DNA from: a virus
Reading direction: 5' to 3' (one strand)
Virus genome (UHGV): UHGV-1442421
DNA length: 32,207 nt
The notes below the pieces were generated by a model. That model was given only the letters and a program-made list of their open reading frames with translations, searched no databases and had not been told where the DNA came from. Made by a program: the position numbers and the translations under genes. Of the stretch, positions 20,238-24,374 are shown in pieces (the stretch's first letter is position 1; every line of letters starts with the position of its first letter).

Positions 20238-21614
20238 TCATACGTCAGCCCCTTGTGCATATCGTCTGCCACGCGCAGCAGGTGCATTTGATGCTGTGCA
20301 AATCTGTCTGGCTTCATCCTGGTCACATGCAACAAAGTGTCCGTTGCAGAACCGCTGGTAAACCGTACCAAGCGAGCCAAAACGGTTTTTCGTCACGATG
20401 ATTTCAGCAAATGGCGCGGCGCTACTGTTCTCGTCATATACCGCTTCCCGATAGAGCATGATGATTGAGTCTGCGTCCTGTTCAATGCTTCCAGAATCAC
20501 GCAAATCTGCGTTTGTCGGGCGTTTGTTTGGTCGCTTCTCAACATCGCGCGAAAGCTGACTCAGGGAGATAACAGGCGTTTTCAGGTCTTTCGCCATCGC
20601 CTTCAGGCTTCCGGAGATGTGAGCAATTGCGAGGTCGTTGCGGTCTGCTTTCGGCTTCTCAATCAGGCCAAGATAATCCGCCATGATGAGTGACAGGTTT
20701 GGATTTTCCTGTTTGTGCCGTTCTGCGATTGAGCGTATTTCTTCGACCGATAACCGCGAGGCATCGACTACCCATACATCCAAATCTGCAAGCTGACTCA
20801 TGCCGTTAGCAACACGCGCCCAGCCTTCGTCATCCATCGATGCAGGATTTCGCAGCACGCTAACCGACATCCTCCCGGCGTTGGCGATGCTTCGCTCTGC
20901 AATCTGCAATGCGCTCATTTCCATCGAGAAAATCAACACTCCGCGCCGAACGTCAGAACCAGGGATAACGCGGCTTGCAACGCCTTCGGCAATCTTCAGC
21001 GCCAGCTCGGTTTTCCCCATACCAGGACGAGCGGCGATAATCACCAGGTCTTCCGCGTTCATCCCCCCGGTGATAGCGTCAAGTTCTTCGATTCCGGTCT
21101 TCAGGGTATCGGACTCTTCTCCGTTCCTCAGACGCCTGTCAAGCGTGTCAGTGTAGTCAGTAATGATTTCCCCTAACCGTACAGGTTTAACCTCGTCACG
21201 GGGCTTTCTGATGGCTGAAAGACGCTTTACAAGCTCATCCATCGCCTGACTCGATGCGTCGATGGTTCCGCTCTGAATTGGTTCACGCATTTCATCCATG
21301 ATTTCCAGCACCAGACGGCGGTGATAGTTATCCGCGACCATTCTGGCATATCCCTTCAGGTTTGCGGCGCTCGGGCAGTTTTTGCTGGTCATCAGGATTG
21401 ACGTGAAATGCTCCTCTCCGCACGCCTCGGCAACCATCAGCGCGTCGATTAGGTTTCTGTTTCTCGCCTGCTTACGGATAACTTCGAAGGCTTTCCTGTA
21501 GAGCGGAATTGAAAACGCTTCCGGCTCCAGCGTTGCCAGAACGTCACTGGCGGTTGGTGTTAATCCACCAATCAGCAGACCACCGATAACGCTCGCTTCG
21601 ATATCCTGTTTCAT
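20238..21614 (-). CDS. Replicative DNA helicase, DnaB family (P22 gp12-like, 458 aa)
   Basis: Walker [10 protein letters not shown] and DnaB-like C-terminal motifs; ATGA overlap with the O-like gene. Confidence 0.9.
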
Positions 21615-22441
21615 GCAATCCCCCTGTCTGCAAACTTCCCTTCCCGTACTCCCGTTAACGAATCTTCCCTCAGCAGGTAATCAAAATCAGCTGTCCAGCC
21701 CGTGTCGTTGTCTCCGAAGTAAAACGGCTTGGCCTGATGCACAAACGCCCTGACATACGCTCTGAAACCGTCCACGTTTGGCGTTTTCAGTTGCGGGATG
21801 ATTTTCTTCAGGCGACGTTTGCGTTTCTCGTTGACCGCAACAGCGTGCGGCAGTCTGTCGCCGACTTCGGTGTTGTAGGCGTTCAGGAAAGATTCGTAGT
21901 CGATGCGTTCTGCCTTGCGACGTTCAGGTTTAACCTGCCCATCGTCGCCCCCGTTAGGGGGTAAGGGGGTATTTGTATTTATTGTCTTTTGTATATTGTC
22001 TTTTGTGTTTGACTGATTCGGTAAATTGCTTTTTACCGATTTGGTGAAGGTTTGTTTTACCGAATTGGTAAATGTTTTACCGAATCCGTTAACTTTCGTT
22101 TTCCACTCGGAAATGTTTGTATTCATACCAACTTGACGCCCCACCTGAATGAGAACTCCCATTCTGATAAGCTCGTTTTTGGCGGTAGAGCATTTGGTTG
22201 GTGCCATGCCAGTGAGTTCAGCGAACTGTTCGTTTCCGATCCAATCTATTTTTTTGTTGTAACCGTATGTCTTGCGCCACACAGCCATAACAATCAGTAA
22301 CTGATGTAGAGTAAGTCCAGAAAGCATGGCGGCTTCTAACAGTGTGTTTGCAGTCCGAGTGTAGCCATCTTCGAGTTCTGCCACGCGATGCTCCACGACC
22401 TCCAGTTGAGGCCTGTAATCAGCTAACTTAACGACGCCCAT
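21611..22441 (-). CDS. Replication initiator, lambda O N-terminal-domain type (P22 gene 18-like, 276 aa)
   Basis: N-terminus resembles lambda O (LEDGYTR..N.LLEA); central low-complexity region encoded by the iterons; SD AGGAG. Confidence 0.8.
21947..22090. other. Probable origin of replication inside the initiator gene: AT-rich tract plus four iteron copies
   Basis: AT-rich 21969..22010; TTTTACCGAAT-like repeats at 22030, 22054, 22074 and inverted at 22015; palindrome CCCCCGTTAGGGGG at 21947. Confidence 0.55.
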
Positions 22442-22589
22442 GTTTCACTCCTGCTTTGGCTAGTCTGTAAACACCAACAAGGCGCTCTGCGAACGCCCTG
22501 TTATTTGCTGCGGCTACCACTAATCCCTCAGGTGAATCAGGGTGTCGAATCTCTTCTTTTTCCTGGTATTTCTTACGACGTTTTGTCAT
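22428..22589 (-). CDS. Small basic hypothetical protein (53 aa from ATG at 22589)
   Basis: AGGAG 6 nt upstream of the internal ATG; lies between cII and the initiator; overlaps initiator start. Confidence 0.35.
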   Translation of the reverse strand: MTKRRKKYQEKEEIRHPDSPEGLVVAAANNRAFAERLVGVYRLAKAGVKHGRR

Positions 22590-22623
22590 AATTACTCCTG
22601 TGGATTGATCCAGTCTTTCTACA

Positions 22624-22902
22624 TCAGGCCTCAAAACTGTTGCCGCAGTCTTGAGGCTTTTCTTTTGTCAGCACCATGGCTACTTTCTTTGCCAGCTCCG
22701 CTAATTCCTCGTCTTCAACACCCCACTCCAGCACAGCCAGAAGCATGGCCATCTTTGGGATAAAGCTGTCTTTCCATCGCGAAATTTGCGATTCATTAAT
22801 CCCTAATGCATCAGCAACCTTTCGCTGACCACGTACAGCAATTCGATTCAGGATGTTGCTTGTAATTGCATTCGCTTTCTTGCTAGTACTTGTAAGTTGC
22901 AT
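22624..22902 (-). CDS. cII: Lysogeny transcriptional activator CII (92 aa from ATG at 22902)
   Basis: HTH and C-terminal region resemble lambda CII (NESQISRWK, LAVLEWGV); upstream TAAGGAAATACTTACATATG as in lambda. Confidence 0.8.
   Translation of the reverse strand: MQLTSTSKKANAITSNILNRIAVRGQRKVADALGINESQISRWKDSFIPKMAMLLAVLEWGVEDEELAELAKKVAMVLTKEKPQDCGNSFEA

Positions 22903-23021: not shown

Positions 23022-24374
<1,353 letters not shown>

Follow-up and report, generated by a model that had tools for sequence, protein, structure and literature searches.

Within a gene for an O-like replication initiator of the virus genome UHGV-1442421, a set of short repeats lies next to an AT-rich tract, and the question raised by this locus is whether these elements form a replication origin embedded in the coding sequence and, if so, of which type. 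An earlier note on this DNA had proposed an iteron-type origin at 21947-22090, similar in arrangement to lambda ori inside O, however with iterons of a different sequence. The term "window" is used throughout for the whole stretch of 32,207 nucleotides that was analysed, and all coordinates refer to it. The initiator gene, its domains and its downstream neighbour were located as follows.

21611..22441, minus strand: O-like replication initiator gene, 276 aa (open reading frame with a match to Pfam Phage_rep_O), with the candidate origin inside
22103..22387, minus strand: coding region of the N-terminal domain (Phage_rep_O, aa 19-113, from Pfam), predicted to bind the origin, P22 gp18 type
21611..21947, minus strand: region encoding the HK97-type C-terminal half of the initiator (99% identity to HK97 O)
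20238..21614, minus strand: gene for a DnaB-type replicative helicase, a 458-aa open reading frame (Pfam DnaB_C, E = 9e-78, plus the DnaB N-domain)

Phage_rep_O was the sole Pfam match of the 276-aa protein (aa 19-113, E = 4e-36). The helicase gene is found directly downstream on the same strand, the two genes sharing the 4 nt where the initiator gene ends and the helicase gene starts, and both reading frames are intact. Comparing the encoded proteins with those of known phages, the N part of the initiator showed 87% identity to P22 gp18 and 43% to HK97 O, while its C part showed 99% identity to HK97 O, 96% to BTP1 and 61% to P22 gp18. The helicase was 99% identical to HK97 gp55 and 89% identical to P22 gp12. 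The N-domain bears the motif PTK-CSTAKN, which defines its class, and the 17-residue segment around this motif is identical in P22 gp18. In phage lambda, the C-terminal part of O works with protein P, which loads the host DnaB; by analogy with lambda O, the C-terminal half of the initiator is presumed to be its helicase-recruiting part. Two further open reading frames touch the gene. One of 68 aa (22428-22634, minus strand) overlaps the start of the initiator gene and occupies the position of P22 orf48 / HK97 gp53, without a Pfam match. The other, of 82 aa, runs antisense within the initiator gene (22052-22300, plus strand).

Using a repeat finder, the true repeat unit was identified as a 17-bp dyad-symmetric iteron, TTTACC-N5-GGTAAA, of which four copies are found within 84 bp. 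They are listed in gene order.

22076..22092, minus strand: iteron 1, TTAACGGATTCGGTAAA, starting at gene nt 350, codon position 2
22056..22072, minus strand: iteron 2, TTTACCAATTCGGTAAA, the best match to the consensus, starting at gene nt 370, codon position 1
22032..22048, minus strand: iteron 3, TTCACCAAATCGGTAAA, starting at gene nt 394, codon position 1
22009..22025, minus strand: iteron 4, TTTACCGAATCAGTCAA, adjoining the AT-rich tract, starting at gene nt 417, codon position 3

The iterons follow each other at distances of 20, 24 and 23 bp, corresponding to approximately two helical turns, and the first is located around aa 117, at the junction of the coding regions for the N- and C-domains. 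With a cutoff of two mismatches, the consensus was found six times in the whole window compared to 0.79 matches expected, and none of 100 shuffled sequences reached six. The repeat had originally been described as a motif, TTTACCGAAT, with three direct copies and one inverted copy. These copies do exist: allowing one mismatch, they were found at 22016-25 (minus strand), 22032-41, 22056-65 and 22076-85 (all plus strand), with seven matches in the whole window (2.05 expected; 0 of 100 shuffles with seven). Nevertheless, they are better read as half-sites of the four palindromic iterons, the "inverted" copy being the better-conserved half of the fourth. As the 11-mers are half-sites of 17-bp iterons, the feature, about right as drawn at 21947-22090, properly ends at 22092 and not at 22090.

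The repeats are part of a coding sequence, situated after the Pfam domain and before the C-terminal half of the protein, and two of the four encode a repeated hexapeptide. They might accordingly be a by-product of a low-complexity linker peptide (FTNSVK / FTKSVK) without any role as DNA. The peptide repeat, which the earlier note had matched to the iterons, is present in the translation; however, it derives from the two middle iterons alone, both of them read in one frame and encoding FTxSVK. The outer two yield the unrelated VNGFGK and LPNQSN; with starts at codon positions 2, 1, 1 and 3, the four iterons occupy three codon phases. Furthermore, each repeat is palindromic, a property unneeded for a repeated peptide, and spacing and register equal those of the annotated iterons of lambda. 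The variation among relatives pointed in the same direction. Third-codon-position diversity, calculated as mean pairwise difference for 19 distinct P22-class sequences from 31 loci, was 0.10 in the iteron arms, 0.39 in the inter-iteron spacers and 0.47 in the N-domain coding region, so that these positions are approximately 4-5 times more conserved in the arms than in the adjacent domain. Essentially no variation was seen in the arms and in the first 15 nt of the AT-rich tract, in contrast to the spacers and to part of the centres of the iterons, and no insertions or deletions were observed between the N-domain and the AT-rich core in the 31 P22-class loci. In 15 distinct P22-class origins iteron 4 was near-invariant, with variation at two central positions only. 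The use of three codon phases, combined with a third-position conservation far stronger than in the flanking coding sequence, indicates that the repeat is selected as DNA, and an origin of the repeats from the linker peptide is considered highly improbable.

Next to iteron 4, two further elements were found.

21969..22008, minus strand: AT-rich, strand-asymmetric tract, sense strand ACACAAAAGACAATATACAAAAGACAATAAATACAAATAC, 21% GC
21948..21969, no strand assigned: G/C hairpin CCCCC-GTTA-GGGGG with a further GGGGG, encoding PLPPNGG, at the distal end of the P22 origin annotation

The AT-rich tract, as first noticed at 21969-22010, was confirmed: its GC content of 21% contrasts with 48% for the window as a whole, and among all 42-nt windows just 0.16% are equally AT-rich. 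On the plus strand 28 of its 42 nucleotides are T, corresponding to 28 of 42 A on the sense strand, and the tract contains a 14-nt tandem unit. The tract at 21969-22008 is presumed to be the DNA-unwinding element. Its core, ACAAAAGACA, is common to the window, P22, HK97, SEN34, PhiR70_1, a Providencia phage and lambda, and it is found at the same position in all of them. Anchoring these seven phages on ACAAAAGACA also aligns their iterons, the last of which ends 1-3 nt before the core. Among the window, P22 and HK97 the AT-rich segment is 100% identical, and it coincides with a mosaic junction. In one relative that is otherwise identical to P22 (L024), the tandem repeat is shorter by one 14-bp unit, ACAAAAGACAATAT; the unwinding element can thus vary in length.

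The palindrome CCCCCGTTAGGGGG, which had been reported to flank the repeats, is present at 21948-21961, and it is one of five perfect 5-bp all-G/C stems with loops of 3-6 nt in the 32 kb. The resulting hairpin is absent from several relatives (L015, L029, L032) and from lambda, for which reason its role in origin function is doubtful. An essential part for it in the origin is not supported, although it lies inside the P22 annotation.

Comparison with the P22 origin, as suggested in the earlier note, revealed near-identity, and the iterons are of the P22 type. The segment 21948-22092 maps base for base onto the rep_origin feature of the P22 record OQ031658, with 140 of 145 positions identical. 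Two of the five substitutions fall into spacers between iterons, two others change the centre of iteron 2 (AGATC in P22), and the fifth lies in the loop of the hairpin; none affects an iteron arm, so that both arms of iteron 2 are identical to those of P22 as well. Over the N-terminal half of the gene and the repeats, the identity to gene 18 of Salmonella phage P22 is 93.7%. The four iterons, the AT-rich tract and the G/C hairpin are common to both phages, as is the position within the gene. They differ in the first approximately ten codons of the initiator, HK97-like in the window, and in the neighbouring immunity region, of the 434 type here and of the P22 type in P22. The form of the iterons, the near-identity to the annotated rep_origin and the gp18-type N-domain assign the locus to the P22 type of origin specificity. 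A complete P22 replication module (genes 18 and 12) was considered and rejected, as the C part of the initiator and the helicase are of the HK97 type.

Four repeats in the P22 origin were noted before (PMC8022706), and the original sequence analysis of P22 is that of Backhaus and Petri (1984), as cited in PMC13397905. We are aware of the fact that the P22 annotation may itself be based largely on analogy, since the label in OQ031658 reads "bi-directional replication origin similar to phage lambda". No footprint of a P22-type initiator on these repeats was found in the literature searched. With 140 of 145 positions identical to the annotated P22 origin, the origin of the window is an ordinary one. 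Judged by sequence, it is an already known origin, a near-identical copy of the annotated P22 type in a mosaic lambdoid phage.

The proposed likeness to lambda ori was supported by the Phage_rep_O match, the register, the spacing and the AT-rich core, all consistent with a putative lambda-type origin inside the initiator gene. The annotated iterons of lambda (ITN1-4) start at nt 349, 369, 393 and 416 of the O gene, compared to 350, 370, 394 and 417 in the window. In both phages the candidate or annotated origin lies in a Phage_rep_O gene at the domain junction, contains four dyad-symmetric iterons with 20/24/23-bp spacing and an AT-rich tract beginning with the ACAAAAGACA core, and follows cro and cII in the rightward operon, which is a predicted one in the window. 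Clear differences were also visible. As had been claimed, the iterons are not those of lambda (TTTACC-N5-GGTAAA here versus TCCCTC...GAGGGA in lambda). The N-domain of lambda O shows 40% identity to that of the window, its C-domain uses protein P to engage the host DnaB while the window phage encodes its own DnaB-type helicase, and the CCCCC/GGGGG hairpin is absent from lambda. Placement inside the initiator gene, 17-bp palindromic iterons, AT-rich tract and co-inheritance of iterons and N-domain together are those of a lambdoid origin.

An iteron origin of the plasmid type (Rep_3 / RepA-pi-RepE) was rejected: Phage_rep_O was the only Pfam family found, the iterons are palindromic, and DnaA boxes are absent from the vicinity. 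With one mismatch allowed, 11 DnaA-box matches were found in the whole window compared to 6.5 expected; none was located within 4 kb of the origin, that is, none between 17782 and 25766, and DnaA boxes as a part of the origin were rejected.

The initiator gene was compared with those of related phages in blocks of 40 nt. The gene is a mosaic of three parts, with approximately 70 nt at the 5' end corresponding to HK97, the N-domain and iterons to P22/BTP1 (85-98% per block), and the 3' half to HK97/BTP1 (92-100%). The mosaic junctions, at 21945-22010 and 22372-22414, fall in stretches identical across all parents. The AT-rich tract together with the G/C hairpin may serve as a recombination joint for swapping modules of origin specificity.

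The O gene of HK97 (gp54) is 92-100% identical to the window over the first approximately 70 nt and from the AT-rich tract, including the G/C hairpin, to the stop codon, and it has the same number and spacing of iterons. However, over the N-domain and the iterons the nucleotide identity drops to 45-68%. With an N-domain only 43% identical and with iterons of the form TTAGC-N7-GCTAA, the origin specificity of HK97 differs from that of the window. As the N-domain and the iterons differ jointly, the DNA-binding domain and its presumed sites are exchanged together. The combination seen in the window is also that of the o/p genes of Salmonella phage BTP1, where N-domain and iterons are of the P22 type and C-domain and helicase of the HK97 type; over 96% of its length, the initiator gene shows 94% identity. 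BTP1 differs in the first approximately 30 nt of the gene, P22-like there and HK97-like in the window, and in its immunity region. A full-length P22-N/HK97-C combination was found in 34 of 5426 complete E. coli genomes, with a best identity of 99.0%, and the combination with an identical N-domain in six IMG/VR contigs.

Upstream of the initiator gene, cII-like, Cro-like and repressor genes were found. A promoter-like site at 23293-23265 is followed on one strand by cro, cII, O and the helicase gene, an order that would suit an early rightward operon in which transcription from pR passes through the origin (transcriptional activation). Two of these genes identify the immunity type.

23341-23973, plus strand: repressor of the phage 434 type, matching the solved 434 repressor (E = 9e-38)
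23022-23237, minus strand: Cro of the phage 434 type, 71 aa, matching the solved 434 Cro (E = 1e-42)

Given the 434-type repressor and Cro, the phage joins immunity of the 434 type to an origin of P22 specificity and a helicase module of the HK97 type. An oop-like antisense RNA (22603-22665, plus strand) was observed in the interval that separates cII from the initiator gene, with a -10-like CATAAT at approximately 22586-22591; the 68-aa open reading frame lies between this region and the initiator gene. It is identical in 62 of 63 nt to the P22 oop RNA known from RNA-seq (PMC13397905), and the conserved promoter/5'-end block given in PMC3349717 is found in its region as well. Its calculated fold is a strong terminator hairpin with a U tract behind it (-26.4 kcal/mol, z = -3.8). 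An Rfam search of the whole window, the oop-like region included, yielded nothing above the gathering threshold.

Operators of phages are typically 17-bp dyad-symmetric sites, and this raises the question whether the 17-mers are bound by a host factor or by another regulator such as a repressor/Cro-like protein, or whether they form a hairpin or terminator on the opposite strand; a consensus scan indeed yielded a terminator-like hairpin at 22032-22072 on the plus strand. However, the repeats travel with the N-domain of the initiator and are independent of immunity, the same iterons being found beside P22-type immunity in P22 and 434-type immunity here, and DnaA boxes are absent near the region. 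The hairpin at 22032-22072 corresponds to the pairing of two adjacent palindromic iterons, with only 4 G-C pairs out of 18, and the number of such matches in the region equals the shuffle expectation; as a terminator it was rejected as an artefact of neighbouring palindromes. We attach very little weight to either of these functions and instead regard the repeats, on the basis of the comparisons above, as the putative origin sites bound by the initiator.

The earlier note had named a lack of conservation in related initiator genes as an argument against its reading. The repeats were found to be conserved in such genes, and they co-vary with the DNA-binding domain of the initiator. For this comparison 80 related IMG/VR loci were classed by the residues preceding the conserved Cys-Ser-x-Ala-Lys segment. 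The N-domain class predicted the iteron type in all 74 loci with iterons at the standard position, and no cross-occurrence was observed: class xTK was found with TTACC-N5-GGTAA (29 of 29 loci), class HTH with TTAGC-N7-GCTAA (11 of 11) and class PHK with TTACC-N7-GGTAA (34 of 34). One further xTK locus, which ends before the origin, stands outside the 74, and the five loci of a fourth class (xTR) among the 80 showed no iterons at the standard position.

Several side observations were made in these relatives. The PHK class has the half-sites TTACC and GGTAA as well, separated by 7 bp and not by 5 bp, and mostly five iteron copies where the P22 type has four. This sister class, with the motif PHK-CSAAK, comprises L006 (PhiR70_1), L047 and L051-L088, and PhiR70_1 has a lambda-type C-domain and a protein P. 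In five loci (L060, L061, L063, L064, L082) a T5orf172 domain (PF10544, E = 3e-8) is found between the Phage_rep_O domain and the origin. An example is the initiator at 1465-2568 of L061, with a different repeat, GGTTGAAAACATTTCAACCG, twice at approximately 2100-2140, followed by the ACAAAAGACA core.

Conceivably, the three residues before the Cys-Ser/Asn-x-Ala-Lys helix form a recognition code for the half-site and the spacing of the iterons, with xTK read as TTACC-N5-GGTAA, PHK as TTACC-N7-GGTAA, HTH as TTAGC-N7-GCTAA and VKR, found in lambda, as TCCCTC...GAGGGA. We propose such a code tentatively and consider it rather unlikely. As the classes are separate lineages, the correlation over 74 loci may reflect shared descent and not these particular residues.

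Taken by analogy with lambda (Tsurimoto and Matsubara 1981, as cited in PMC8022706), initiation at this locus would proceed as follows. Rightward early transcription, on the minus strand here, would start at the 434-type pR, traverse cro and cII and give rise to the O-like protein. Dimers of its N-terminal Phage_rep_O domain would bind the four 17-bp dyad-symmetric iterons, and the resulting nucleoprotein complex would stress and open the adjoining 40-bp tract of 21% GC. The C-terminal half of the initiator would then recruit the phage-encoded DnaB-type helicase from the adjacent downstream gene; recruitment of the phage's own helicase would replace the lambda route, in which protein P loads the host DnaB. 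A sequence search of known structures gave no solved relative of the initiator (best E = 0.29, unrelated receptors), and the single-sequence AlphaFold2 model was unusable (mean pLDDT 40, pTM 0.23). The dimer-on-palindrome binding mode is for this reason one that we infer, and binding, unwinding, helicase recruitment and firing are all predicted from the lambda system.

An origin by descent does not have to be an active one. The element may be a prophage with a replication module that has ceased to fire, either as a fossil in a defective prophage or because the mosaic P22-N/HK97-C initiator does not work. The window mosaic matches known phages only piecewise, and an identical record was absent from the collections searched (with 99.0% identity as the best match in E. 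coli). On the other hand, the reading frames of initiator and helicase are intact and the iteron arms are those of P22. The same combination of N- and C-domain is used by BTP1, whose record gives culture supernatant as source, and it occurs at full length in the 34 complete E. coli genomes and with an identical N-domain in the six IMG/VR contigs. An inactive origin is considered unlikely here. The segment 21948-22092 is very probably a bidirectional (theta) replication origin of P22 specificity, located inside its own initiator gene in a lambdoid phage or prophage.

The feature is useful mainly for annotation, as it marks the origin of the phage; the arrangement is a textbook one and of little discovery value. 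Nevertheless, it provides a clean example of a DNA element under selection within a coding sequence. If the proposed recognition code were true, the origin specificity of lambdoid phages would be predictable from sequence and could be re-engineered, and the shared AT-rich tract would be a natural splice point for swaps of specificity modules. The comparison shows that origin recognition, by N-domain and iterons, and helicase recruitment, by C-domain and helicase, are exchanged as separate modules.
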